Assembly (NCBI GenBank): GCA_015059965.1
Contig: SUZM01000011.1
Location: 13,640-77,639, forward strand
Length of the DNA: 64,000 nucleotides
Direction of reading: 5' to 3'
Source: Rikenellaceae bacterium
GTDB lineage: Bacteria > Bacteroidota > Bacteroidia > Bacteroidales > Rikenellaceae
The notes beneath the pieces were generated by a model. It was given only the letters and a program-made list of their open reading frames with translations. It made no database searches and was not told the DNA's origin. The position numbers and the translations under genes were made by a program. How positions within the stretch are numbered: position 1 is the first letter of the stretch; the number at the start of each line of letters is the position of its first letter. Below are positions 2,645-63,724 of this stretch, one piece after another.

Positions 2645-2946
2645 AGAGGAGCAAAGAACATAGCACCAAATTTCAACAGGTTTAGCAGATTTAACCCCTG
2701 ATCTATAGTCGAAAAAGAGGTCCTTAAGATCTCTTTTTTGACTTTTTTCTTTCTCTGTTCGACCTGAGATACACTCCTTAGAGGGGCTTCTGAGGCCGAT
2801 TCGGTCCGAATATCCGCTATTCGGACTCGTGAGCATGCAAAATATTTGGAGCATTGTGCCTCTTTATACGACCTTTGTGACAGGAGAAAATGAGAGCGGA
2901 ACCGAAAAGCTATAACAGAGTAGGAAAATTTTAAAACCAAACAACG

Positions 2947-3438
2947 ATGAAACGATTATTACTTCTTTTGGCAGCCGTGATGTGTTTCTCGGTCGCCAAC
3001 GCGCAAAAGGGCGAGATGGCCGCCGGCGTTAATTTCAATTTCGGCACTGCCTACACGGGTGCTTACAGCAACATGGGTATCGGGCTCAAGTACCAATATT
3101 TAATCACGGATCACTTCCGCATCGAGCCCGCCTTTACCTACTACTTCAAGAAGGACTATATCTCGATGTGGGATGTAATGGCCAATGTGCACTGGGTCTT
3201 CCATATGGCAGACAACAAGCTGAACCTCTATCCGTTGGTCGGACTGGGAGTATTGGGTGCCAAGGCGAGCGTCTTTGGTTATTCGGCTTCGACGACCAAC
3301 TTCGGGATCAACCTCGGTGGTGGTGTGGAGTACAAGGTCCACGAACATATAGCCATCGGAGCCGAACTTAAGTATGCCATTGTTGGTAACAGCTACAGTC
3401 ACCTCGGCATTCAGATTGGAGCCACCTACCTCTTCTAG
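2947..3438 (+). CDS. small outer-membrane beta-barrel protein (OmpW/opacity-porin-like)
   Basis: 163 aa with signal peptide MKRLLLLLAAVMCFSVANAQ, alternating beta-strand pattern and a terminal aromatic residue (GATYLF). Confidence 0.7.
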   Translation: MKRLLLLLAAVMCFSVANAQKGEMAAGVNFNFGTAYTGAYSNMGIGLKYQYLITDHFRIEPAFTYYFKKDYISMWDVMANVHWVFHMADNKLNLYPLVGLGVLGAKASVFGYSASTTNFGINLGGGVEYKVHEHIAIGAELKYAIVGNSYSHLGIQIGATYLF

Positions 3439-3512: not shown

Positions 3513-3950
3513 ATGAAGATTATGAAGACGATGAAACGACTTTTCTGCATGTTGCTTTTGGCAGCTGCAGCAACCGCCTTTATCGCCTGCAGCGATAAGG
3601 AGGATGACAACCCGATTAACCCCAACTCCGGAGAATTGGTTTACGGACAGTGGGTAGAGCGTGGCAACCAGCTCATCTACAGTGAATCCTACGATCAGGG
3701 GTACGGTATGGGATATACCATGACTTGGACACTTACCTTCGACAGCAGTGAAATTTGTGTTGCCTCCGAGTGCACCTACACCTTTGCCTCGGCCGATTTG
3801 GCCCAGATTGTCTACGAATCCTATGCCGACGAGGAGGTGAACGCCCGAATCTCGGGCCGCGTGGTAACCTTTGACTTTACGGAGTATCATGCCGGGCTGA
3901 CCAAAGCCGAAGCGATGGCTATGGTAGAGTCGATGGGCGGACTCATGTAG
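3513..3950 (+). CDS. hypothetical lipoprotein
   Basis: 145 aa with a signal peptide and lipobox (LLLAAAATAFIACSDKEDD). I do not recognise a family. Confidence 0.6.
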   Translation: MKIMKTMKRLFCMLLLAAAATAFIACSDKEDDNPINPNSGELVYGQWVERGNQLIYSESYDQGYGMGYTMTWTLTFDSSEICVASECTYTFASADLAQIVYESYADEEVNARISGRVVTFDFTEYHAGLTKAEAMAMVESMGGLM

Positions 3951-4029
3951 CCCTCAAATCCGCATCAGAGGGTTTTATGATGTGGATTCCTGATTAAAAT
4001 ACGCCACAATGAAACCAGCACAATCGGCG

Positions 4030-4103
4030 TGCACCTGGTCCTTGGGTAGCAGTTAAAGACTGCACCCACCGCTCTCGATCCGACCAGGTGCATGCCTCTT
4101 TTT
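4030..4103 (+). terminator. large branched hairpin plus T-run downstream of the lipoprotein gene (terminator, or 3' end of a small RNA)
   Basis: TGCACCTGGTC (4030-4040) pairs with GACCAGGTGCA (4082-4092). There is an inner stem GGGTAGCAG/CTGCACCC, followed by CTCTTTTTG. Confidence 0.55.
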
Positions 4104-4203
4104 GCTGTTGAGGCGATCTTTCGGTTGCGAAAGGGAGGGTGTTAAAGTGGAAAATCGATTGTTCGGGGAAAATTATTGCTTCGGCAGTGGTTGAAATTTG
4201 TGA

Positions 4204-4236
4204 ATTATTTTGTACCTTTGGTAGTCGAACCCGAAT
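4204..4236 (+). promoter_or_regulatory. murA promoter/leader: -7 box TACCTTTG (4213-4220) within a 33-mer shared with 1475-1507
   Basis: ATTATTTTGTACCTTTGGTAGTCGAACCCGAAT compared with ATTATTTTATACCTTTGGTAGTCGAACCCGAAT at 1475-1507 (32/33 identical). Confidence 0.7.
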
Positions 4237-4248
4237 CAAAGTGAGAAT

Positions 4249-5550
4249 ATGGCAATATTTCAAGTCGAAGGCGGACATCGTCTGCATGGTGAGATTACCC
4301 CGCAGGGGGCTAAAAATGAGGCGCTTCAGATCCTCTGTGCCACGCTGCTGACACCCGAGAAGGTGATCGTGAGAAATGTACCTCAGATTTTGGATGTGCT
4401 CCAGCTCATCGAACTCCTCAAGGCGATGGGCGTCGAGGTGGAAAAACTCTCCGAGGAGTGTTACTCGTTCCGCGCAGCCGACATCAACCTCGACTACCTG
4501 CAAAGCGAGGATTACCGACGTCGGGGAACCAAATTGCGCGGCTCGGTGATGATGCTCGGCCCGCTGTTGGCCCGTTTCGGTGTGGCCTACATCCCCAAGC
4601 CCGGAGGCGACAAGATCGGACGTCGCCGTCTGGATACTCACTTCCTGGGCTTCCAGAAGCTGGGTGCCGAGGTCGATTTCGCTGCGGGCCGCGTGACGGC
4701 CAAGGAGCTCAAGGGTACCTATATGCTTTTGGACGAGGCCTCGGTGACGGGTACGGCCAACATCGTGATGGCCGCTGTATTGGCCAAGGGAACCACCACG
4801 ATCTACAATGCGGCTTGCGAGCCCTATCTGCAGCAGCTCTGCAAGATGCTCAACCGCATGGGCGCCAAGATCTCGGGCATCGCCTCCAACCTGCTCACGA
4901 TCGAGGGTGTGGAGTCGCTCGGTGGTACCGAGCACACGATGCTTCCCGATATGATCGAGGTGGGCAGCTTCATCGGCATGGCCGCCATGAATCGCTCGGA
5001 GCTCCTGATTCGCAACGTCTCGTTCGAGAACCTGGGCATCATTCCGGCCCAGTTTGCCCGCATGGGAATCCAATTCGAACAGCGCGGAGACGACCTTTAC
5101 ATCCCGCAGCAGGATCACTACCGCATCGAGACCTTCATGGACGGATCGATCATGACCATTGCCGATGCCCCGTGGCCGGGACTGACCCCCGATCTCCTGT
5201 CGATCTTCCTGGTGGTGGCTACGCAGGCCAAGGGTGCCGTGCTGATTCACCAGAAGATGTTCGAGAGCCGTCTCTTCTTTGTCGATAAGTTGATCGATAT
5301 GGGGGCTCAAATCATCTTGTGCGATCCCCACCGAGCCACGGTGATCGGCCACAACCACGAGGTGAGGCTTCGTGCTACGCGCATGTCGTCGCCCGATATC
5401 CGCGCGGGTGTAGCCCTGTTGATTGCCGCCATGTCGGCTGAAGGGGTTTCGACGATTCAGAATATCGATCAGATCGACCGCGGCTATCGCGATATTGATC
5501 GTCGTTTGAATGCCTTGGGTGCCCGCATCACCCGCTTAGAGGATTTTTAA
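4249..5550 (+). CDS. murA: UDP-N-acetylglucosamine 1-carboxyvinyltransferase
   Basis: 433 aa. N-terminus MAIFQVEGGHRLHGEITPQGAKNEALQILCATLL and full-length MurA/EPSP-fold similarity. A TAccTTTG box lies 29 nt upstream. Confidence 0.95.
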   Translation: MAIFQVEGGHRLHGEITPQGAKNEALQILCATLLTPEKVIVRNVPQILDVLQLIELLKAMGVEVEKLSEECYSFRAADINLDYLQSEDYRRRGTKLRGSVMMLGPLLARFGVAYIPKPGGDKIGRRRLDTHFLGFQKLGAEVDFAAGRVTAKELKGTYMLLDEASVTGTANIVMAAVLAKGTTTIYNAACEPYLQQLCKMLNRMGAKISGIASNLLTIEGVESLGGTEHTMLPDMIEVGSFIGMAAMNRSELLIRNVSFENLGIIPAQFARMGIQFEQRGDDLYIPQQDHYRIETFMDGSIMTIADAPWPGLTPDLLSIFLVVATQAKGAVLIHQKMFESRLFFVDKLIDMGAQIILCDPHRATVIGHNHEVRLRATRMSSPDIRAGVALLIAAMSAEGVSTIQNIDQIDRGYRDIDRRLNALGARITRLEDF

Positions 5551-6517: not shown

Positions 6518-7366
6518 TTATGCCATAAAATTCTTATAGCACTGGATCGTATTCTCCATCAGGCAGGTGATGGTCATGGGGCCTACACCGCCCGGTACGG
6601 GGGTAATGTGCGAGGCGATGGGCTCGATGGCAGCGTAGTCCACATCACCACACAGCTTGCCCGTCTCGGGATCGCGATTTACACCCACGTCGATCACCAC
6701 GGCACCCGGGGCCACCATGTCGGCCGTCACGAACTTCGGGCGACCAATGGCCACTACCAGGATCTCGGCTCCGAGGCAGACCTCCTTAAGATTTTGGGTG
6801 CGGCTGTGGGCGATGGTCACCGTAGCGTTGTTGTCCAAGAGAAGCTTGGCCACCGGAAGGCCTACGATATTGCTGCGGCCGATCACCACGGCACGCTTGC
6901 CGGCGATCTCTACGCCTGCGGCCTTCAGGAGCTTGATGATGCCCTTCGGCGTGCAGGGGAGGATGCAGCGATCCTTCTGCCACAGGGCAGCGACGTTGAG
7001 CGGGTGGAAGCCGTCCACATCTTTCTCCTTGCTGATCGTGGCAATCACCTTCTCTTCCGAGATGTGTTTGGGCAGGGGCAGCTGTACGAGGATGCCATCC
7101 ACGTTTTGGTCTGCGTTCAGATCGCGAATCAGCGAGAGGATCTCCTCCTCCGTGGCGCTCTCGGGGCGGCGGATCGTGGTGTTGTCGATACCCAAGGCGT
7201 TGCAGGCTTGGGCCTTGCCGGTCACATAGCTCACACTGCCGGGATCTTCGCCCACCAGAATCACCACCAGGTGCGGGGCGCGACCATATTTTGCCTTCAG
7301 CTCGGCAACCTCCTCGGCCATCTCGGCCTTCAACTTAACCGAAAGTTCTTTTCCAGAAATAATCAT
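6518..7366 (-). CDS. folD: bifunctional methylenetetrahydrofolate dehydrogenase/methenyl-THF cyclohydrolase
   Basis: 282 aa with motifs LVVILVGEDPGSVSYV, VIGRSNIVGLPVAKLL and TPVPGGVGPMT. Confidence 0.95.
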   Translation of the reverse strand: MIISGKELSVKLKAEMAEEVAELKAKYGRAPHLVVILVGEDPGSVSYVTGKAQACNALGIDNTTIRRPESATEEEILSLIRDLNADQNVDGILVQLPLPKHISEEKVIATISKEKDVDGFHPLNVAALWQKDRCILPCTPKGIIKLLKAAGVEIAGKRAVVIGRSNIVGLPVAKLLLDNNATVTIAHSRTQNLKEVCLGAEILVVAIGRPKFVTADMVAPGAVVIDVGVNRDPETGKLCGDVDYAAIEPIASHITPVPGGVGPMTITCLMENTIQCYKNFMA

Positions 7367-19516: not shown

Positions 19517-19604
19517 AACTTGGAATTAGGGGTTACAATCGGTTAAATGTGAATGAGTTAATCGGTTAAATATTAAGTATTTCAATCGGTTGAATGTAAA
19601 TGGG

Positions 19605-21824
19605 TTAGAAGTTCGCTGTTACGGTGACACCGAAAGTGCGGGGACGTCCCTGTTGCATGAATTCGCGTCCCACGGACTTGAAGTAGAAGAGGTCGTAGCG
19701 CGTATTGGTGAAGTTGCGGCACCAGAGGTCGAGGGTGTAGTTCTCATGCTCGAATCGGAGCGAGAAGTTCCCCAGCAGGTAGAGATCCTGGCTCAGCGTG
19801 TTCTCCTCGTTCCAGGCAATGGGGCCCGCGCCGCGCAGGTCAATCGAGGGGATGATGCGCTCGAGCCATGAGCTGCGAATCGGGAAGGTGTAGGCCGCAC
19901 GCGCCGCAAGGGTGTGCTCTGGGGCGTAGGGGAGGCGATTGCCGCTGTAGTCTGCCTCGCCGCTCAGGTATTCGCGGAAGGTGGCGTGGGTATAGCCATA
20001 GGAGGCCGAGAGGTTCAGCTGCCCGGTGGGGCGTGCCACGAGCGTGAGTTCGCCGCCGAGGCTGTGGGTTCGGCCGGCATTGGTCATCATGCGTCCGGTG
20101 GTCTGGCCCGGCGGGAAGACGGTGAGTTGTTGGTCGTGGCAATCGATGAAGAAGAGGCTGAAATCGACAAGCAGATCCCCCTTCAGCAGGTGGAGGTGGC
20201 CGCCCAACTCATAGTTCCAGCTCCATTCGGGGTCGTAGCCCACCACCTGGTCGATGGCAAACTGGCGGTTGAAGGAGATGCCCATCTTCTTCATCAGCGA
20301 ATTTTGCAATACCTCGCTGAACATCTGTGTGTTGAATCCTCCCGCCTTATACCCTTTCGAGGCCGAGAGGTAGAGGTTCGAGAGGCGATGGCTGCCCATG
20401 CGGTAGAGGACCGAGAGCTTGGGCAGCAGCTCTGTGAAGCGCTTCCGGAGATCTCCGTTCAGGGCGTAGGGCTCGATCGTGGTGGCATTCACGCGGCAGG
20501 GCTTGTGGGTCGAGCTGAGGTAGTCGAGGCGTGCCCACTCCACATCGAAGCGCAGGCCCGCCGTCAGGAGCCAGCGGCCGAGGTTGAGCGACGATTCGTG
20601 GTAGAGCGCAGCACCATAGGTGAGCTGGTCGAAGTCGCTGTCCAGGAGAAACTCCTTGGGGAAATCGACCTCGATACCCTCGGGGATATTCCCCAGGATC
20701 AGGTTGTGGATGCCCTCCTCTTTGAAGAGTACCGGGGCCTGCATGTCGCCCCCTTTCCAAAAGCCAAAGGCCCCCACCAGCCATTGGTAGCGGCTCTTTG
20801 TGGTCGAGCGCACGACCACCTCTTCGCTCAAGGCGTGTTCGCGGCGCAGCTGTTCGAGTGTGAAGTAGCTCTCGGGGCGGAAGTCCTGGTCGAGGGTCAT
20901 CTCATCGTCGAGGAACTGGTAGGAGGTGATGCTCTCCACCATGGCCCGGCCTCCGCTGTAGCGAAGGGTCAGGGCATCGCTCAGGGTGGCGCGCTCATAG
21001 CCGCAGGGGTCGTTGTAGGCGATATCTCCCGTCTCGACCGAACGATAGGGGTAGCCCCCCTGTTCGAGGAAGGAGGCGGCGAAGGTGTTTCCGATAAACC
21101 ACCCCTCGGACTCCCACTCCACCTTGAAGCGGGCTCCGCCTCCAATCTCATGGTCGCACTTTTCGCCCGTGTAGCTGTTCGTAAAGAGGCCGTCCGACCC
21201 CCCGAGGTTGGCGGCAACGCCGATGCCGAGGTTGTGCAGGCGGTTGTAGCTCGACAGTCGCACCTTATAGCTGTTCCCGCTGCCATACTCGGCCAGGAAA
21301 CGTGCCCCCTGAAAGGTCAGCGGTGAGAGGGTGCGGATGTTGATCACACCCCCCATGGTGTTGCGCCCGTAGAGGGTGCTCTGTGGTCCGCGCAGCACCT
21401 CTAAGCGTTCAATGTCGGCCACGTCGAGGTCGTAGCCGTCCTTGTTGAGCATCGGTACGTTATCGACGTTGAGCCCCACGACCGGCTGGTCGATGCGGGC
21501 CCCTAAGCCGCGCACATAGATCGACGAGGTCATGCGCGACCCATAGTCCGGGGCATAGAGGTTGGGGACTAAACAAGAGACCTCCTTGGGGGCCGAGAGC
21601 TGTAGGCGCTCAACCTCCGACTGGAGGAGCTGCGTGGCTGCGATGGGGCTTTGTCTCAGGGGTGCGCGCTGCTTGATCGAGGGGGCTTGCACCACCACCT
21701 CCTCCATGCGGATGGTGGTGTCGGCCTCCAACGGCAACTCCGTACCGCGTCCTCGGGCCGAGGCCCCGAACGCGACAAAAAGCAGCATAGGAATCAGCAG
21801 TTTATGAATTTTACAGCCTTTCAC
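19605..21824 (-). CDS. TonB-dependent receptor (no SusD partner)
   Basis: The ORF is 19605..21860 (TTG). GTG at 21824 gives (M)KGCKIHKLLIPMLLFVAFGASA; ATG at 21788 is an alternative start. It has a plug (EEVVVQA...VEVLRGPQSTLYGRN) and a C-terminal barrel ending ...RTFGVTVTANF. Confidence 0.88.
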   Translation of the reverse strand: MKGCKIHKLLIPMLLFVAFGASARGRGTELPLEADTTIRMEEVVVQAPSIKQRAPLRQSPIAATQLLQSEVERLQLSAPKEVSCLVPNLYAPDYGSRMTSSIYVRGLGARIDQPVVGLNVDNVPMLNKDGYDLDVADIERLEVLRGPQSTLYGRNTMGGVINIRTLSPLTFQGARFLAEYGSGNSYKVRLSSYNRLHNLGIGVAANLGGSDGLFTNSYTGEKCDHEIGGGARFKVEWESEGWFIGNTFAASFLEQGGYPYRSVETGDIAYNDPCGYERATLSDALTLRYSGGRAMVESITSYQFLDDEMTLDQDFRPESYFTLEQLRREHALSEEVVVRSTTKSRYQWLVGAFGFWKGGDMQAPVLFKEEGIHNLILGNIPEGIEVDFPKEFLLDSDFDQLTYGAALYHESSLNLGRWLLTAGLRFDVEWARLDYLSSTHKPCRVNATTIEPYALNGDLRKRFTELLPKLSVLYRMGSHRLSNLYLSASKGYKAGGFNTQMFSEVLQNSLMKKMGISFNRQFAIDQVVGYDPEWSWNYELGGHLHLLKGDLLVDFSLFFIDCHDQQLTVFPPGQTTGRMMTNAGRTHSLGGELTLVARPTGQLNLSASYGYTHATFREYLSGEADYSGNRLPYAPEHTLAARAAYTFPIRSSWLERIIPSIDLRGAGPIAWNEENTLSQDLYLLGNFSLRFEHENYTLDLWCRNFTNTRYDLFYFKSVGREFMQQGRPRTFGVTVTANF

Positions 21825-21886: not shown

Positions 21887-22023
21887 AATGAGCAATGAGC
21901 AGTGAGCAATGAGCAGTGAGCAATGAGCAATGAGCAATGAAGCTTGCGCCCCGAAATATTTAATTGGTAATATTTCCAACAACAAGGAAATTATTTCTCA
22001 TTTCTCATTTCTCATTTCTCATT
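21887..22023. repeat. composite repeat copy A: (AATGAGC/AGTGAGC)x7.5 - core - (TCTCATT)x4
   Basis: Left array 21887-21940. Core AGCTTGCGCCCCGAAATATTTAATTGGTAATATTTCCAACAACAAGGAAATTATT. Right array 21996-22023, which contains the stop codon of the LuxR-family gene. Confidence 0.85.
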
Positions 22024-22600
22024 CCTCGTTGATATACCCGTTCATCATGGCGTAGATCGTCAGGGCCGAGGTGGTGCGGATGCCGAGTTTGCGCATCAGG
22101 TTGCGGCGGTGGGAGATTACTGTGGTGATGCCGATACCCATGCGGTCGGCAATCTCCTTGTTGATCAGCCCCCGGGTGATCAGGCGCAGCACCTCCGTCT
22201 CGCGTGGGGTGAGCCGCTTTTCGGGGCGTGGGCGCGGGGCTCCGCCTCCCTCGGCGGGGTGCCCGTGGTGGCGGATGCGCATCAGATCGCGCACGATCGC
22301 CGTCTCGCTCTGTGCGATGTTGAGCGAGTGCCCCTCTGTCTCCTCCCCCTGTGTGAGGCAGATTGTGCGGTGGCGCTTCTCGCGGAGGAGTTCGCTGTGC
22401 TGCTCGACCAGTTCCCGGTCGATGAAGTAGTGGAAAATGTGTTCGTGGCGCTCCTCCTCCAGCAGTTCGTCGAGAGCGCTGAAGTGGATCACCTCCACCC
22501 CGGGCTGGATCCGCTCGAGCAGCGCCTTGAGCCCTAAGCCCACCAGGGCATTCCGGCTCAGGATCGCAAAGCGGGGAGTGGCTATCTTGGGGTTATTCAT
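22019..22600 (-). CDS. LuxR-family regulator with degenerate receiver-like N-terminal domain
   Basis: 193 aa with a C-terminal LuxR HTH (LTPRETEVLRLITRGLINKEIADRMGIGITTVISHRRNLMRKLG). The N-terminal part resembles a receiver, but the acidic DD pocket reads S-R-N. Confidence 0.8.
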   Translation of the reverse strand: MNNPKIATPRFAILSRNALVGLGLKALLERIQPGVEVIHFSALDELLEEERHEHIFHYFIDRELVEQHSELLREKRHRTICLTQGEETEGHSLNIAQSETAIVRDLMRIRHHGHPAEGGGAPRPRPEKRLTPRETEVLRLITRGLINKEIADRMGIGITTVISHRRNLMRKLGIRTTSALTIYAMMNGYINEE

Positions 22601-25978: not shown

Positions 25979-26016
25979 GCCTCCCAAATAATAAAACCGG
26001 TTTGGGAGGCGTTTTT
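25979..26016 (+). terminator. intrinsic terminator after asnS
   Basis: GCCTCCCAAA - loop - TTTGGGAGGC followed by GTTTTT. Confidence 0.9.
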
Positions 26017-26070
26017 GCTAATAAGGAAGAGGCCGATTTGTTCTATCACTTTAAGCAGATTGGCAAGGAT

Positions 26071-27489
26071 ATGGCAATAAACCAACGACAGATCTTGTCG
26101 CTTCAGCAGAAGCTCTCTCCGCAACAGATCCAGATGATCAAGTTGCTGGAGCTCCCCACCATGCAGCTCGAGCAGCGCATCAAGCAGGAGATTGAGGAGA
26201 ATATTGTGCTGGAGGAGGATCGGCAGACCGAGCCGGATGAGGAGCCGCAGCAGATTTCGGTTGAGGAGTACCTCAAGGAGGATGACACTCCGGCCTATAA
26301 GAGTCGGGTGAACAACTTCTCGAAGGATGATAAGCAGCGTCCGATCTACCTTTCGGGGGGGCGTTCGTTGCAGGAGTACCTGGTCGAGCAGCTGGGCTAT
26401 CGCAACCTTTCGGAGCGGCAGATGCGGTTGGCGATCTACCTGGTGGGGTCGATTGATGAGGATGGTTACCTGAGGCGTGAACTCCTCTCGGTGGCCGATG
26501 ATATCGCCTTCACGCTTGGTATCGAGACTTCGGAGCAGGAGTTGGAGCAGCTCCTGGGGGTGATCCACGAATTGGAGCCGGCGGGCATCGGAGCCCGCAA
26601 CCTGCAGGAGTGTCTGCTCCTGCAGATGGGTCAGAAGCGCCTCACGACGCGTGCGTTGCGCTTGGCGCATCGTATTCTTGCGCAACATTTCGAGGAGTTT
26701 GCCAAGAAGCATTACGAGAAGCTGATGCAGCGCCTCCAGATCTCGGAGGAGGATTTCCGCGAGGCCTTGCAGGAGATTCGGCACCTCTCGCCCAAACCCG
26801 GCAACCTCTATGCCGAGGGGGGCAGTGAGGCTGCGCCCTACATCATTCCCGACTTTGTGCTCGACTACCACGATGGGCGTTTCGATCTCTCGCTCAACTC
26901 CACGGGGGTGCCCGAGGTGAAGATCAATCGCCGTTATGTGGAGATGATGCGCGAGATGGTGCAACCCGATGGCACGGTGAAGAGTGAGAATCGCGAGGCG
27001 GTGCAGTTTGTGAAGTCGAAGATCGACTCGGCCAAGTGGTTCATCTCGGCCATCCGTCAGCGCCACGATACGCTGATGCGCACCATGCAGGAGATTTTGG
27101 ACTACCAGCAGGAGTATTTCCGTGATGGCGACAAGTCGAAACTGCGGCCCATGATCCTGAAGGATATTGCCGATCGTACCGGGCTCGATGTCTCTACCAT
27201 TTCGCGAGTCGTAAACAGCAAATACGTTCAGACGCACTTCGGCATTATCTTGCTGAAATCGCTCTTCTCGGAGGCGATGCTCACCGACTCGGGCGAAGAG
27301 GTCTCGAGCTATGAGATCAAGACCCTGCTGCAGCAGTTTATCGACAATGAGCAGAAGCGCCATCCGCTGACGGATGAGACCCTGATGGTAATGCTCAACG
27401 ATAAGGGCTATCGTATTGCCCGCCGCACGGTGGCCAAGTATAGGGAGATGCTCGGAATCCCGGTGGCTCGTCTTCGCAAGCAGATATAG
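26071..27489 (+). CDS. rpoN: RNA polymerase sigma-54 factor
   Basis: The ORF is 26002..27489. The ATG at aa 24 gives MAINQRQILSLQQKLSPQQIQMIKLLELP (region I). The C-terminus has an RpoN box-like ARRTVAKYRE. Confidence 0.92.
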   Translation: MAINQRQILSLQQKLSPQQIQMIKLLELPTMQLEQRIKQEIEENIVLEEDRQTEPDEEPQQISVEEYLKEDDTPAYKSRVNNFSKDDKQRPIYLSGGRSLQEYLVEQLGYRNLSERQMRLAIYLVGSIDEDGYLRRELLSVADDIAFTLGIETSEQELEQLLGVIHELEPAGIGARNLQECLLLQMGQKRLTTRALRLAHRILAQHFEEFAKKHYEKLMQRLQISEEDFREALQEIRHLSPKPGNLYAEGGSEAAPYIIPDFVLDYHDGRFDLSLNSTGVPEVKINRRYVEMMREMVQPDGTVKSENREAVQFVKSKIDSAKWFISAIRQRHDTLMRTMQEILDYQQEYFRDGDKSKLRPMILKDIADRTGLDVSTISRVVNSKYVQTHFGIILLKSLFSEAMLTDSGEEVSSYEIKTLLQQFIDNEQKRHPLTDETLMVMLNDKGYRIARRTVAKYREMLGIPVARLRKQI

Positions 27490-32089: not shown

Positions 32090-32215
32090 TTCTCGCCTGT
32101 TCCGGCTGGGCAGTTAGAGCCGTAGGTTTTTTGTGGGAGTTCTGGGAATTTTAGGAGATATGGGAGGTATGGGATAGTTTTACAACTCCCAAAATCCTAT
32201 ATCTCCTACAATTCC

Positions 32216-32275
32216 CATTGCTCATTACCCATTGCTCATTACTCATTGCTCATTGCTCATTGCTCATTGCTCATT
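32216..32275. repeat. 7-nt tandem array (GCTCATT/ACTCATT/ACCCATT x8), copy E, 8 nt from the OPT transporter stop
   Basis: CATTGCTCATTACCCATTGCTCATTACTCATTGCTCATTGCTCATTGCTCATTGCTCATT. A separate imperfect palindrome (TGGGAATTTTAGGAGATAT...ATATCTCCTACAATTCCCA) lies just to its left. Confidence 0.85.
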
Positions 32276-40427: not shown

Positions 40428-40470
40428 ACGCAATTGTTTTATAGTTAATAGTTTTCTATTTTTTTGCTCG

Positions 40471-40516
40471 TCTCTTTATTCCTCGGTTCTTTATTCCTCG
40501 TCTCTTTATCTTTCGG
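40471..40516. repeat. tandem direct repeat 3 x 15-16 nt (TCTCTTTATTCCTCG-like)
   Basis: Seen in the spacer between the DUF6850-like gene and the fimbrillin-FISUMP gene. It resembles the CTCTTTATTTCGG end of repeat copy F. Confidence 0.8.
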
Positions 40517-47240: not shown

Positions 47241-47276
47241 TTTGTATATAACTCTTATTTTGTATATAACTTTTAT
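47241..47276. repeat. tandem direct repeat 2 x 18 nt (TTTGTATATAACTCTTAT / TTTGTATATAACTTTTAT)
   Basis: Seen in the ureD-urea transporter spacer. Confidence 0.85.
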
Positions 47277-47305
47277 TGTGCAAAACAGCATAAATTAGAA
47301 ATTTT

Positions 47306-48877: not shown

Positions 48878-49028
48878 AATGAGCAATGAGCAATGAGCAA
48901 TGAGCAATTGGGCTTACGCACCGAGATAATCGATTGGGAATATTTCCAACGACAAGAAAATCATTTCTTACTACTCACTTCTCATTTCTCATTGCTCATT
49001 ACTCATTACTCATTTCTCATTTCTCATT
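48878..49028. repeat. composite repeat copy B, between ureF and ureG
   Basis: (AATGAGC)x4, then AATTGGGCTTACGCACCGAGATAATCGATTGGGAATATTTCCAACGACAAGAAAATCATT, then nine 7-nt units of type nCTCATT. Confidence 0.9.
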
Positions 49029-50304: not shown

Positions 50305-52022
50305 CAGCTGAACCAGTAGAGTTGTCCTAAGGCGACCCGCTCGGCCGGACGGAGCGAGACCACTTCGCCGTTGATGCGCACCTCGAAGGTCTGCGAATCG
50401 ACCTCGATGTGGGGGGTGGCATTGTTCAGATACATCTGCTCCTTGGTCAGTTGGCGGGTGTGCTGCACGGGCAGAACGCACTTCTCAAGCCCCAAGCGCT
50501 CCTTGATCCCCAGTTCAAAGGCTGCCTTCGAGACAAAGGAGATGCAGCTGCGCTTCAGCGCCTTGCCCCGAGCCCCGAACATCGGGCGGTAGATCATCGG
50601 TTGCGGAGTGGGCAGCGAGGCGTTCGGATCTCCGATATTTGCCCAATTGATCATCCCCCCTTTGATCACCATCTTGGGTTTGGCTCCGAACATTGCCGGC
50701 TCCCAGAGTACCAGGTCGGCCACCTTGCCCTTGGCGATTGAGCCGACGTAGTCCGAGATGCCGAAGCAGATGGCCGGGTTGAGGGTGATCTTCGCCAAAT
50801 AGCGCCGGACGCGGAAGTTGTCGTTTTCGGGGCTCTCCTCCTTGAGCCTTCCGCAGGCCTGCTTCATGTAGGAGGCCATCTGGAAGGTGCGCATGAAGCT
50901 CTCACCCACGCGGCCCATGGCTTGCGAGTCGGACGAGACCATCGACAGCACGCCCAGGTCGTGGAGCATATTCTCGGCTGCCTGGGTCTCGGTGCGCACG
51001 CGGCTCTCGGCAAACGAGACATCGGAGGGGATCTTCGGGTTGAGGTTGTGGCAGACCATGATCATATCGAAGAGCTCGGCCTGCGAGTTGATTCCAAAGG
51101 GAAGGGTGGGGTTGGTCGATGAGGGGAGGACGTTTGCCATCGAGGCCACCTTCAGCAGATCGGGGGCATGGCCGCCACCGGCCCCCTCGGTATGGTAGGT
51201 GTGAATCGTGCGCCCCTCGAAGGCTGCGATCGTATCCTCGACATAGCCCCCTTCGTTGAGGGTGTCGGTGTGGATGGCCACCTGGACATCGTAGCGGTCG
51301 GCCATCTTTAGGGCCGTGCGGATCGACTCGGGGGTCGAGCCCCAATCCTCGTGGACCTTCAGCCCGCAGCATCCCGCCTCGAGCTGTTCGGCAATGGACC
51401 GTTTGCCCGAGCAGTTGCCCTTACCCAGCAACCCGATATTGATGGGCAGATCCTCCACGGCCTGCAGCATCCGCTCCACGTTCCACACCCCCGGGGTGAT
51501 GGTTGTGCCGTTGGTGCCGTCCGTAGGACCTACGCCGCCGCCGATGAGGGTTGTGATGCCGTTTGAGAGGGCTGCTTCGGCCTGCTGGGGAGCGATCATG
51601 TGGACGTGGCCGTCGATGCCTCCGGCGGTGAGGATCAGATGCTCCCCCGAGATGGCATCGGTCGAAGCTCCGGTTACCAACTCGGGAGAGACTCCCGACA
51701 TCGTGTCGGGATTCCCCGCCTTGCCGATACCGGCAATCAGTCCATCCTTAATTCCGACATCGGCCTTGACGACACCCAATATGGGGTCGAGGATCGTTAC
51801 GTTGGTGATCACCAGGTCGAGCGAGCCCTCTTTCGAGGTGAGCTCGGCGGCTTGTCCCATGCCATCGCGCAGGGTCTTGCCTCCACCGTAGACCACCTCA
51901 TCGCCGTAGCCGCGCAGATCCTTCTCGATCTCCACATAGAGCTCCGTGTCGCCCAGGCGGATCTTGTCGCCCACCGTAGGGCCGAACAGGTCAGCGTATG
52001 CCTGTCTTGTGATGCTTGCCAT
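50304..52022 (-). CDS. ureC: urease subunit alpha
   Basis: 572 aa with [20 protein letters not shown] and [11 protein letters not shown] (Ni-site residues). Confidence 0.97.
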
Positions 52023-52867: not shown

Positions 52868-52924
52868 AGGTATATAAAATTTTGAAAGTGTTTCGAATTG
52901 ACTTCTTTTTCGTTATCTTTATAT

Positions 52925-53027
52925 TATTGAAAATTCTTTATTGAAAATTCTTTATTGAAAACTCTTTATTTCGGTCTATATCACCATATAAATATTTTGG
53001 TGCGCAGCCCAATTGTGAATTGTAAAT
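52925..53027. repeat. composite repeat copy F (reverse orientation), between crcB stop and ureA start
   Basis: (TATTGAAAATTCTT)x3, then ATTTCGGTCTATATCACCATATAAATATTTTGGTGCGCAGCCCAATTG, then TGAATTG and TAAATTC. The core matches the reverse complement of the copy B left core. Confidence 0.8.
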
Positions 53028-53430: not shown

Positions 53431-53445
53431 GCAAGGATTGTGCCA
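53431..53445 (-). promoter_or_regulatory. sigma-54 type -24/-12 promoter element TGGCACAATCCTTGC upstream of crcB
   Basis: The minus strand reads CTGGCAC-AATCC-TTGCC, a perfect match to TGGCAC-N5-TTGC. The GC of the -12 element is 29 nt before the crcB ATG. rpoN is present in this window. Confidence 0.55.
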
Positions 53446-53460
53446 GAATAATTTAGGGAG

Positions 53461-53598
53461 GTGAGCAATGAGTAATGAACAAAGAATAACAAGTAATGAG
53501 CGGGGATGCTTTGTCGGGGAGCCAAAGCAGAAACGGGGCATATTGCCAACGACAAGGAAAATAATTTTGAATTTTGAATTTTGAATTTTGAATTTTTT
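53461..53598. repeat. composite repeat copy D, between crcB and glyQS
   Basis: Degenerate AATGAGC-type array, then a core containing GCATATTGCCAACGACAAGGAAAATAATT, then (AATTTTG)x5. Confidence 0.75.
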
Positions 53599-60521: not shown

Positions 60522-60641
60522 AATGAGTAATGGGTAATGAGTAATGAGCAATGAGTAATGAGTAATGAGCTTACGCACCGGAATATTACCTGAGAATATT
60601 TCAACGACAAGAAAATCATTGCTCATTGCTCATTGCTCATT
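60522..60641. repeat. composite repeat copy C, between mutS stop and the WG-repeat gene start
   Basis: (AATGAGT/AATGGGT/AATGAGC)x7, then TTACGCACCGGAATATTACCTGAGAATATTTCAACGACAAGAAAATCATT, then (GCTCATT)x3. The arms are reverse-complementary. Confidence 0.9.
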
Positions 60642-60644
60642 TGT

Positions 60645-63326
60645 TTATAGCCCTGTGATCTTCTTGATTTCGTTCAATTTGTTCAGGGCCTCCAGAGGGG
60701 TGAGCGAGTTGATGTCGATCCCCTTGATCTGGTCGCGGATCTGCACCAGTACGGGGTCGTCCAGGCGGAACATCGAGAGTTGCATCTCCTGTGCCCGCGA
60801 GAGCTCCTCGACGGTCTCGCGCACCGAGGCGCGTTTGCGACCGCGTTCCTTCAGGCTCTTCGAGGGGACAATTTCGTTCTGGCCATAGACCTGCACCAGG
60901 TTCTTCAGGATCTCATCCGCACGGTTTACTAGCGAGGAGGGCATGCCGGCGAGTTGTGCCACGTGGATACCGAACGAGTGTTCGGAGCTGCCGCGCAGGA
61001 GTTTTCGTAAGAACACGACCGATCCGTCCAACTCCTTGACGCTCACATGGTAGTTCTTCACCCGGGGGTACATCTGCTCCATCTCGTTGAGCTCGAAGTA
61101 GTGGGTGGCGAAGAGGGTCTTGGCGCGTGCCGAGGGGTGGTTGTGCAGGTATTCGACCATGGCCCAGGCGATCGAGATGCCGTCGTAGGTGCTTGTGCCG
61201 CGGCCGATCTCGTCCAGGAGCACTAAACTGCGATCCGAGATGTTGTTGAGGATGGCGGCCGACTCCAGCATCTCAACCATGAAGGTCGATTCTCCCTGTG
61301 AGATGTTGTCCGAGGCCCCCACACGCGTAAAGATCTTGTCCACCACACCGATTCGGGCCGACTTGGCCGGCACGAACATACCCATTTGGGCCATCAGCAC
61401 GATCAGGGCTGTCTGGCGCAGCAGGGCCGATTTACCCGACATGTTGGGTCCGGTGATCATGATGATCTGCTGCTCCTTCTCATCGAGCGTAACGTCGTTG
61501 GGGATATACTCCTCCCCCACGGGCAGCAACATCTCGATCACGGGGTGGCGACCCTCGCGGATCTCGATCCGCTTGCCGTCGTTGAGCTCGGGGCGCGTGT
61601 AGCGGCGTTCGACGGCCAGGCGGGCAAAGGATTGCAGACAGTCCAAGCGCGAGATCGCGCCGGCATCGCGCTGCAGGGTGGGGATTGTGCGCGAGAGGTC
61701 GGCAATGAGTTGCTGATAGAGGCGTTGTTCGATTTGCAGCATCCGCTCCTCGGCGCCGAGAATCTTCTGCTCATACTCCTTGAGCTCCTCGGTGATGTAG
61801 CGCTCGGCAGCCGTCAGGGTCTGCTTGCGGATCCAATCCTCGGGGACCTTGTCTTTGTGCGTGTTGCGCACCTCTATATAATAGCCGAAGACGTTGTTGT
61901 AGCTGATCTTGAGTGAGGGGATCCCCGTGCGCTCGGATTCGCGCTCCAGGATCCGGTCCAGAACCTGCTTGCCGTGGTGGGCAATGCGCCTCAGGTCGTC
62001 GAGCTCGGCATCCACCCCCGGGGCGATGAATCCCCCCTTCTGGAGTTGGTTTGCCGGGTCGGGGTAGAGTTCTCGGGCCAACCGTTCGCGTACCTCCGAC
62101 AGCGGATCGATCTCTGCTCCCAGGCTGTTCAAAGGTTCCGAGTCGGTCGAATCCAGCAGGGCCTTCAGGTGCTCCACAGCCTCGAGGGCTGTCTTCAGCT
62201 GAATCATCTCGCGGGGCAGGATGCGCCCCGTGGCGATGCGTGAGAGGATGCGTTCCAGGTCGCCTACGCGCGTGATCTGCTCTCTGAGGGCCTCGGCAAA
62301 CTCCCCGTCGCGGGTGAGGTGCTCCACCACATCGAGGCGGCGGTTGATCTCCTCGATCGACTTTACGGGCATGGCCACCCATCGTTTCAGCCTGCGACCT
62401 CCCATCGGGGTCAGCGTGCGGTCGATCACATCGGCAAAGCCGCACCGCTCGCGTGAGGCGTTCGATGAGAAGAGCTCCAGATTGCGAATTGTGAATTTGT
62501 CGATCCAGACATACTCCTCCTGGTCGATGCGTGAGATGGAGTCGATGTGGGCCGTGTCGCGGTGTTCGGTAAATTCGAGGTAGTAGAGGATGGCCCCGGC
62601 AGCCGAGATGCCGCTCGTCAGGTGATCCACGCCGAAGCCCTTGAGCGAAGAGGTGGAAAACTGCTTGCAGAGCTTCTCGCGGTTCACCTCCTCGGAGAAG
62701 ACCCACTCGTCGAGCCGATAGGTGTAGTGGCGCGTACCGAAGATACTCGAAAAACGCTCCTCCGATCCTCGTTGGTAGAGGATCTCCTTGGGGCGGAGGT
62801 TTGAGACGAGCTTGTCGATGTAGTTGTCCGATCCCTCGGCGACATAGAACTCTCCGGTCGAGATGTCCAAAAAGGCGGCTCCGGTGCACTGTTTGCCAAA
62901 GTAGATTGAGGCCAGAAAGGAGTTCTCCTTTGCGGGCAGGATATTGTCGCCCATCGCCACGCCGGGCGTAACGAGTTCGATCACTCCGCGCTTGACAAGA
63001 CCCTTCACGGTCTTGGGGTCTTCGAGCTGCTCACAGATGGCCACGCGCTCACCCGCCCTCACCAGTTTCGGCAGGTAGGTGTCGACGGCATGATAGGGGA
63101 AGCCGGCCAACTCGACAAACGAGGCGGCGCCGTTGGCCCGGCGCGTGAGGGTGATGCCCAGAATCCCACTCGCCTTGATGGCATCCTCGCCAAAGGTCTC
63201 GTAGAAGTCCCCTACGCGAAACAACAGAATCGCATCGGGGTGTACTGCCTTGATCTGGTAGTACTGCTTCATCAGGGGGGTCTCCACATATTTTTTCTCC
63301 TTTCCGGAGCTCTTTTCTTCGGCCAT
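60645..63326 (-). CDS. mutS: DNA mismatch repair protein MutS
   Basis: The ORF is 60645..63419. The start at [26 protein letters not shown] (63326) lies 20 nt downstream of a TATATTTG box. Walker A is [10 protein letters not shown]. Confidence 0.95.
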
Positions 63327-63353: not shown

Positions 63354-63724
63354 CGAAGAACTTGCGTAAAAATGGCAGGATGAGGGTGAAATTTGATAAG
63401 TGGTTGGTACATATACCATTTTTGTGTTACCTCACCATATTGTTAAATTTGGCAGAAGGAGCCGAATATGGTGGGTGTTAGAGAAAGAATTGCTACCTAT
63501 CCGTTGCCTTTATATTAAAGGGAAAGTTGGTAGAAAAAGCATCTTTAATCTCTTGCACATACCCTACAACAGCCACAAAGAACGCTTGTTTTTTTTATCA
63601 TTGCACTGACAAAGGTAATCATTTTTTCTCGTTGGAAGAAAAATACGAGAATGAGATTAATAGTCAAGTACTTGTTGCCTTGTTCCGCTATGTTCTACAT
63701 GCCGTTCATTAACTCTGTAAAATT

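Follow-up and report, generated by a model that had tools for sequence, protein, structure and literature searches.

The Foldback (FB) elements of Drosophila are kilobase-scale repeats with subrepeats of 10, 20 and 31 bp, some of them with coding loops, and their mobility has been demonstrated. They are said to possess long inverted arms made of tandem short repeats in variable number, reportedly described by Potter, Truett and colleagues at around 1980–81. Among the palindromic repeats of bacteria, the REPs of E. coli are imperfect palindromes of ~35 nt that are linked to RAYT transposases, while the Correia/NEMIS elements of Neisseria have fixed terminal inverted repeats of 26 nt with TA duplications. 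In both REP/BIME and Correia elements, the transcribed repeat forms a hairpin, with consequences for mRNA stability or RNase III processing.

Tandem arrays are the building material of two further systems. BrickBuilt of Porphyromonas gingivalis is a MITE/minisatellite in which an internal array of 23-nt units lies between a ‘leader’ and a ‘tail’ (PMC4596501). Intergenic arrays of the heptanucleotide TAACTGA occur in Beggiatoaceae, Cyanobacteria and five Bacteroidetes (PMC4679880), and the LSSR survey of Mrazek et al. 2007 is referred to here as it is cited in that paper.

The repeat family analysed here was found in a 64 kb stretch of Rikenellaceae DNA, referred to as the window. The full element is 120–190 nt long and consists of a central core between two inverted arrays of 7-nt units. 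With FB elements it shares array-built inverted arms of varying unit number, a non-repeated centre and the capacity to snap back into a hairpin, but FB elements are eukaryotic and mobile, whereas the Rikenellaceae element is far shorter and has no coding partner. Like BrickBuilt, it belongs to the Bacteroidota, is strictly intergenic and multicopy, combines tandem array, conserved unique segments and inverted ends, and has a limited host range. The two have no sequence similarity, however, and in place of one internal array of 23-nt units there are two inverted arrays of 7-nt units outside the central core. Promoter activity is a demonstrated feature of BrickBuilt.

As in REP/BIME and Correia/NEMIS, the palindromes lie between genes that are probably co-transcribed, and a hairpin mechanism may operate here as well, but the arms are microsatellites, no target-site duplication was seen, and the window has no RAYT gene. 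The cyanobacterial STRR, TAACTGA and LSSR arrays are also intergenic and made of 7-nt tandem units, often lie only a few nucleotides from start codons, differ from strain to strain and have a scattered distribution over the phyla, some Bacteroidetes included. They are plain direct arrays for which neither a conserved core nor systematic inverted pairing is described; the STRR/LSSR type thus covers the arms and a core-less array of the window (E, see below), but not the core or the composite element.

Anatomy and extent of the repeat family

The original prediction described eight loci, A to H, as sharing one architecture of tandem array, core and second array. Three of these (A, B and C) are clear paralogues of one element, as judged by an nhmmer core profile (Table 1), and their cores are 79–84% identical in pairwise comparison. 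Patterns for the left and the right core, allowing up to 3 mismatches, each match A, B and C alone, where 0.00–0.01 matches are expected from shuffled sequences. The first half of the shared plan runs from (AATGAGN)n via GCTTRCGCACCGrAATATT to a spacer of 6–7 nt, and the second half from GAATATTyCCAACrACAAGrAAAwyATT to (NCTCATT)n. The core is ~58 nt long and imperfectly palindromic, with the arrays inverted on either side. The arms form inverted repeats of 25–31 nt with 84–93% complementarity, which can pair in several slipped registers; that the arms of B and C are reverse complements able to form a hairpin had been predicted correctly. One right-core sequence had been assigned to A, B, C and D, and is exact in B alone.

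Two further loci are half or diverged copies. In D, the right half of the core is recovered, while the left half has diverged and the arms are non-complementary. In F, the left core is present in the predicted reverse orientation, while the right half is not recovered, the model having matched in the left half alone. E is a bare array, in which nhmmer found no core, and it adjoins an unrelated hairpin (~32141–32215). G and H gave no nhmmer match at E<=5 and have no TRF array; in H, the CTCATT units amount to barely one and a half. As G and H are unmatched, D and F are half copies and E is an array alone, eight members is an over-count: the 64 kb contain three full copies, two half or diverged copies and one bare array. 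The arrays of 7-nt period in A, B, C, D and E were all found by TRF where they had been predicted.

Table 1. Positions of the elements and their parts in the window, with the evidence for each.
Feature	Position	Strand	Evidence
A left arm, (AATGAGC/AGTGAGC) x7.7	21887..21940	+	TRF; sequence
A core	21940..21998	+	nhmmer E 2.8e-16
A right arm, (TCTCATT) x5	21993..22027	+	TRF; sequence
B left arm, (AATGAGC) x4.4	48878..48908	+	TRF period 7, 100% matches
B core, TTGGGCTTACGCACCGAGATAATCGATTGGGAATATTTCCAACGACAAGAAAATCATT	48908..48968	+	nhmmer E 4.4e-17; motif searches vs shuffles
B right arm, (NCTCATT) x9.7	48961..49028	+	TRF; inverted-repeat pairs I1-I7, 86-93% complementary
C left arm, (AATGAGT/C) x6.9	60522..60569	+	TRF; sequence
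C core	60566..60623	+	nhmmer E 1.2e-13
C right arm, (GCTCATT) x3.7	60616..60641	+	TRF
D, old diverged copy	53461..53598	+	nhmmer right half 53534-53568, E 4.8e-6
D first arm, degenerate AATGAGY	53461..53500	+	
D second arm, (AATTTTG) x4.9	53563..53596	+	TRF
E, bare (GCTCATT/ACTCATT) x8.6 array, core-less	32216..32275	+	TRF; sequence
F, partial copy	52924..53027	-	nhmmer E 0.005; TRF
F left core	53011..52974	-	
F, 2-3 CAATTCA units			
F, 14-nt array x3.4	52924..52970		

The family is real, although smaller than claimed, and it is apparently undescribed; its ingredients are known. In line with the expectation that no described family would match, none of the elements was matched when the whole window was searched against Rfam at gathering thresholds, and literature searches found no description of the Rikenellaceae core or of the array-armed arrangement. 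In E-value mode, B returned sub-threshold miRNA-hairpin look-alikes alone (29.7 bits vs a threshold of 135), a resemblance to miRNA precursors that is due to the hairpin shape alone. Two other positions of the window do reach an Rfam gathering score. One is 5_ureB_sRNA (51572–51872, plus strand, 63 bits), antisense within ureC, a match that probably reflects conserved urease coding sequence. The other is a DUF805b motif (2893–2926, plus strand, 40.9 bits) upstream of an outer-membrane beta-barrel gene (2947–3438).

Searching representative genome contigs with the right-core pattern gave 3 chance matches, all of them coding and ending in ...NNKKII*; the source species is either unrepresented in the genome collection or not assembled through the repeats. 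Scans of viral contigs with the left and the right core produced chance coding matches only. With a permissive pattern applied to metagenome contigs, a single contig (L084) was real among the 120 stretches listed, and almost all the rest were due to chance. A pseudo-peptide search, using the array translation ‘SLLIAHC’ together with core frames, recovered arrays from scattered taxa and the core in none of the 120 proteins listed. On plasmids, a plain (CAATGAG)n array was found in Yersinia pseudotuberculosis and no copy of the core. Since AATGAGC also forms plain arrays in Yersinia and in a scatter of metagenomic ORFs, the unit itself is not lineage-specific.

Turnover of the arms and age of the copies

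The strains compared were L004, which is 100% identical to the window, and L005/L158 (GCA_053312515.1), which is ~98.4% identical. Between the window and L005, 5 of the 6 indels of at least 3 nt are gains or losses within tandem arrays. They affect the 15-mer array at 40488, the left arm of B, which is 34 nt longer in L005, an arm of D (12 nt), and F, where a 14-mer array and one 7-nt unit differ in number. The core of B differs by a few substitutions only. In L158, both arms of C are longer by one unit, around an identical core. Unit variants differ between strains even when the number of units is equal, and short-read contigs (Logan) end inside the arrays. With most strain indels located in arrays and unit variants turning over, the arms behave as hypervariable microsatellites.

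The sixth indel is unrelated. It is a 149 nt insertion in L005, at 56344, between convergent genes for Lactamase_B_3 and peptide deformylase; it is bounded by a ~25-nt direct repeat (CCCCGAATGrGAAGTACACCAAGTA) and looks like a repeat-mediated deletion/insertion. The window has further intergenic tandem arrays whose period is not divisible by 7, namely a 23-mer x3 (19537–19607), a 15-mer x2.9 (40467–40509), which has one unit fewer in L005, and an 18-mer x2.1 (47241–47277).

To compare species, syntenic loci of relatives were fetched via UreF homologues, with the identical L35 protein as an additional anchor. In the species with 85% UreF identity (L148, L162), an AATGAGA array follows ureF. At the D site, a full core is found in one of these (L162; E 1e-16, arms AATTCAA/TTGAATT) and also in a species with 69% UreF identity (L149; E 2e-12, AATTCAR arms), so that D is old and vertically inherited. 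Its left arm has switched unit family from AATTCAA to AATGAGY, which leaves the copy in the window without a hairpin. The ureF-ureG spacer of L149 holds a different 10-mer array. No core was detected in ~55 kb of non-redundant sequence from the species with 61–63% UreF identity (L150, L154, L155, L159), where the ureF-ureG spacer is unrelated and B is absent. In L155, a 61% species, the mutS-WG spacer is just 27 nt long and the C site is empty. B and C arose, or were lost, more recently.

A REP/BIME- or MITE-like nature had been proposed for the family, and part of this holds. Terminal inverted repeats are present, with the core extending the palindrome of the arms, and the dispersed copies show presence/absence differences between species, B and C being those that the 61–63% species do not have. 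Current mobility is not supported: within the species, all sampled strains agree in their copies and in the sites of these. No transposase was found among the ~40 window genes with a Pfam call, and no autonomous relative was found. On inspection, the flanks of A, B and C have no consistent direct repeat, and in L155 the sequence of the empty C site has diverged too far for an alignment. The REP/BIME type, a conserved imperfect palindrome of ~20–40 nt in hundreds of copies with a cognate RAYT (IS200-like) gene, does not fit an element of 120–190 nt with array arms.

The metagenome contig L084 (JAEIGA010351558.1), which stems from another organism, has a full core of 76–81% identity and one significant left-core-only copy (E 0.09); a further such copy at the contig end is a pattern match only. 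Its core copies (1–660 and 2040–2302) lie among ~290-nt direct repeats, CGTCATCCCGAG-type inverted repeats and C-tract hairpins. These repeats flank a gene for an AAA_25 ATPase and resemble the origin region of a plasmid or mobile element. Another contig, L139 (ERZ27298148 k141_37709; ~50% G+C, Bacteroidales-like), has ~3 tandem copies of a ~493-nt unit at 3700–5250. In this unit, (GTAGCGGT)n on the outside and (AATGAGC)n / (GCTCATT)n on the inside are inverted and nested around a different core, which contains a TATATTTG -7 box, and a (TCTATAGCT) x14 array is found nearby. As the design is the same while the core is different, the ‘array-armed palindrome’ may be a more general habit of Bacteroidales.

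In related species, the crcB-ureA spacer, the spacer between OPT and the next gene, and the ureF-ureG spacer contain unrelated 7–10-nt arrays (AATTCAW, TTCCTAA, AATTCAG, TACTAGGGCG), located at 6852–6910 in L150, 808–870 and 9583–9644 in L154, and 4428–4465 in L149. Some of them reach within 10–15 nt of the next start codon. Array-filled spacers characterise the clade as a whole.

Gene context, transcription signals and folding

The window has ~59% G+C, with AT-rich spacers. It stems from an uncultured, Alistipes-like gut bacterium: its proteins exactly match MAG entries for Rikenellaceae bacterium/Alistipes sp., and its genes are of the Bacteroidota type (TonB/Plug receptors, Mfa-like protein, DUF4876, purDHNMFCL-purE, ureABCEFGD, mutS, rpoN). 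B sits between ureF and ureG, inside ureABCEFGD, with gaps of 15 nt to the ureF stop codon and 28 nt to the ATG of ureG (minus strand, start codon 48849). C sits between mutS and a WG-repeat gene, leaving 3 nt to the mutS stop codon (60645–60647) and 16 nt to the start codon of the WG-repeat gene. The right arm of A overlaps the TGA stop codon of a LuxR-family gene (22019–22600, minus strand; Pfam GerE), and A lies ~150 nt upstream of a gene for a TonB-dependent receptor. E starts 8 nt past the stop codon of an OPT transporter gene. D lies between the divergent genes crcB and glyS, with a sigma-54-type crcB promoter on one side and the glyS promoter on the other, and F lies between crcB and ureA. 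In A, B, C and D, the core points the same way with respect to the gene downstream of it (4 of 4, not significant); since the minus strand carries nearly all local genes, this agreement is confounded.

The sigma-54 consensus is matched perfectly just once in the window, by TGGCACAATCCTTGC at 53431–53445 (minus strand), ~28 nt upstream of the crcB start codon. L162, L149 and L155 have kept the site at the same place, and L150 has it with a single substitution. RpoN itself is encoded in the window (rpoN, 26002–27489), and Rfam detected no fluoride riboswitch. A sigma-54-driven crcB, if this is what the site indicates, would be unusual. A connection between sigma-54 and the repeat was considered and rejected, the single consensus site in the window being that at crcB.

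Bacteroidetes sigma-A promoters are defined by a -7 box, TAnnTTTG, which a -33 TTTG may accompany. The local promoters show this box, usually as TACCTTTG. Two divergent TACCTTTG promoters at ~1430–1495 lie upstream of an AraC-family gene and have an inverted repeat of ~15 nt per arm between them, AATAATTGGGAATTC-N7-GAATTCCCAATTATT, the TTGGGAAT/ATTCCCAA dyad of which resembles the centre of the repeat core. Within A, B and C there is no sigma-70-type promoter and no terminator pattern. The TAnnTTTG box is absent from both of their strands, by which a canonical promoter was rejected; among the elements, it is present only at the core/arm junction of D (53562) and at glyS P1 (53600). An intrinsic terminator, with GC-rich stem and U-tract, was likewise rejected for A, B and C, canonical terminators being present elsewhere in the window (e.g. 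near 25990 and 34390). A small conserved ORF in the core was also discarded, as inspection of the sequence revealed stop codons in the core frames and an ATG that is not conserved. Since B and C fill co-directional spacers that lack promoter and terminator, it is simplest to suppose that both are transcribed as part of the operon mRNA.

When folded as RNA, B reaches -61.4 kcal/mol on the minus strand and -49.9 kcal/mol on the plus strand (z ~-7 on both). In a comparison of whole elements, the values on the plus and minus strands are -43.8 and -44.7 kcal/mol for A, -47.0 and -58.0 kcal/mol for B, and -43.4 and -36.7 kcal/mol for C. Whole-element folds span -37 to -70 kcal/mol, and D of the window, with its non-complementary arms, yields -12 to -20 kcal/mol. 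Neither strand folds consistently better in A, B and C, and strand-specific RNA folding was therefore rejected. RNAalifold places the left and right halves of the core in one imperfect stem that continues the arms; at -3.6 to -7.8 kcal/mol, this consensus fold is weak, and covariation contributes almost nothing to it.

In six diverse cores, 89% of the helix cells are paired, a value matched by 141 of 500 shuffles, and the observed covariation values are reached in 96–356 of 500 shuffles. Compensatory changes had been proposed for the small palindromes of the core, and a single pair proved to have changed on both sides. The suggestion of an mRNA element in the sense of a conserved RNA structure fares no better, given that covariation does not exceed that of shuffles and that no strand is consistently favoured. 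G-to-A changes in A and in B of L005 break a predicted long-range stem pair. On inspection, the seventh base of the arm units does not keep its complementarity between the arms; taken together with the non-complementary arms of D, this suggests that hairpin quality is not strongly selected. The palindrome is real, and its conservation looks sequence-based rather than structure-selected.

Origin of the elements and their possible roles

Of several possible explanations, we tentatively favour, at somewhat less than an even chance, that the elements are old, now immobile palindromic repeats of a foldback/MITE-like type, with arms that evolve by slippage, and that they are co-transcribed as operon hairpins. 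The unit would be lineage-restricted and non-autonomous, its ~58-nt core stem running out into the two inverted 7-nt arrays. Copies may have spread to intergenic spacers before the lineage parted from the species of 69–85% UreF identity. They would since have been inherited vertically, with a slowly drifting core and with arms that turn over fast by replication slippage, through gain and loss of units and even replacement of the unit family. B and C would most likely be transcribed in the operon mRNA and form a long, register-slipping hairpin, the most probable effect of which would be on mRNA processing or stability, or an uncoupling of the flanking cistrons, as in REP/BIME and Correia elements. 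Against this stand the lack of a recognisable target-site duplication, of a transposase or RAYT gene in the window and of presence/absence differences within the species, as well as the small sample of 3–5 copies and the apparently weak selection on hairpin quality. In addition, the persistence of the right core between species down to 69% UreF identity could equally be the mark of a sequence-specific function such as a protein-binding site.

The last point leads to the main rival, which we consider unlikely, that the core is a sequence-specific protein-binding module at the DNA level (an operator or nucleoid-protein site) and that the arrays are tolerated or tunable spacers. Such a module would comprise the GGAATATT...AATATTCC dyad and the invariant blocks CAACGACAAGG and GCTTRCGC, which persist across species while covariation is absent. 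Core halves that occur apart, in F and in the left-core-only copy or copies of L084, are reminiscent of separable sites; furthermore, D sits between two promoters, and divergent promoters at ~1440–1480 enclose a similar TTGGGAAT...ATTCCCAA dyad. However, the flanking genes (LuxR/TonB receptor, urease accessory, mutS/WG, crcB/glyS) follow no regulon logic, B and C are located inside operons where no promoter was seen, and no candidate binding protein was identified. It is distinctly unlikely that the core is a weak or alternative-sigma promoter aimed at the downstream gene, which would make the element an internal promoter cassette. The only hint of such a role is that the right core marginally resembles -7 regions nearby: AATGATTTTC-TTGTC matches AATGATTACCTTTGTC, a promoter-like site with a -7 box that lies upstream of mutS at 63610, and AATTATTTTCCTTGTCGTTGG corresponds to AATTTTTTGTACCTTTGTCGGTTGG in glyS P1. 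The similarity has p values of 0.003–0.05, uncorrected for 36 comparisons, and the nhmmer profile misses these promoters. Moreover, no copy retains either the TA or the TTTG of the -7 box (the copies read TTTCCTTG or TTTTCTTG), and the -33 TTTG is absent. A cassette would agree with the common orientation of all four copies toward the downstream gene and with the core/arm junction TAATTTTG created by AATTCAA-type arms, a perfect -7 box in the opposite direction, and it would have a precedent in the bidirectional promoter activity of BrickBuilt (PMC4596501).

That there is no element at all, and that heptanucleotide microsatellites have arisen in place by slippage of the LSSR/STRR type around a core that is leftover spacer, is very improbable. 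Relatives do carry unrelated, core-less 7–10-nt arrays in the same spacers, AATGAGC does form plain arrays in Yersinia and scattered taxa, and E is bare. This process can account for the arms and for E, G and H, but not for the homologous cores of A, B, C, L084, L162 and L149 (E 1e-12 to 1e-17) nor for arms that are always inverted around the core, and for A, B and C it is contradicted by the profile statistics. We also see very little chance that the core fold is the functional part of a structured RNA, whether a cis-regulator (e.g. an attenuator) or a small RNA (e.g. an intergenic sRNA released by processing). Probable transcription within operons and the strong hairpin energy would be expected of such an RNA; yet no Rfam gathering score is reached by the elements, the pair statistics equal those of shuffles, the consensus core fold is weak, no strand is preferred, and the predicted stem is broken by the G-to-A changes mentioned above.

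Beyond the foldback/MITE-like origin that we favour, it is quite improbable that the heptamer arms act as contingency rheostats between cistrons or that the elements represent the first bacterial transposons of the foldback type. As rheostats, slippage would alter the length and register of the hairpin and so set relative expression, for example of ureABCEF vs ureGD. Shine-Dalgarno sequences are little used in Rikenellaceae, as in the Bacteroidota in general. As foldback transposons, the elements would call for a dedicated recombinase that recognises iterated AATGAG/AATTCA hexamers.

Short-read assemblies of this common gut family break at the elements, which fragments MAGs at operon junctions, and the arms are built-in hypervariable typing markers that differ between strains only 1.6% apart. 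A 120–190-nt hairpin within housekeeping operons (urease, and downstream of mutS) offers a natural test of the ways in which bacteria with little use for Shine-Dalgarno sequences tolerate or exploit structured intercistronic RNA. Mobility or tunability, should either prove true, would extend the architecture of foldback elements to bacteria.
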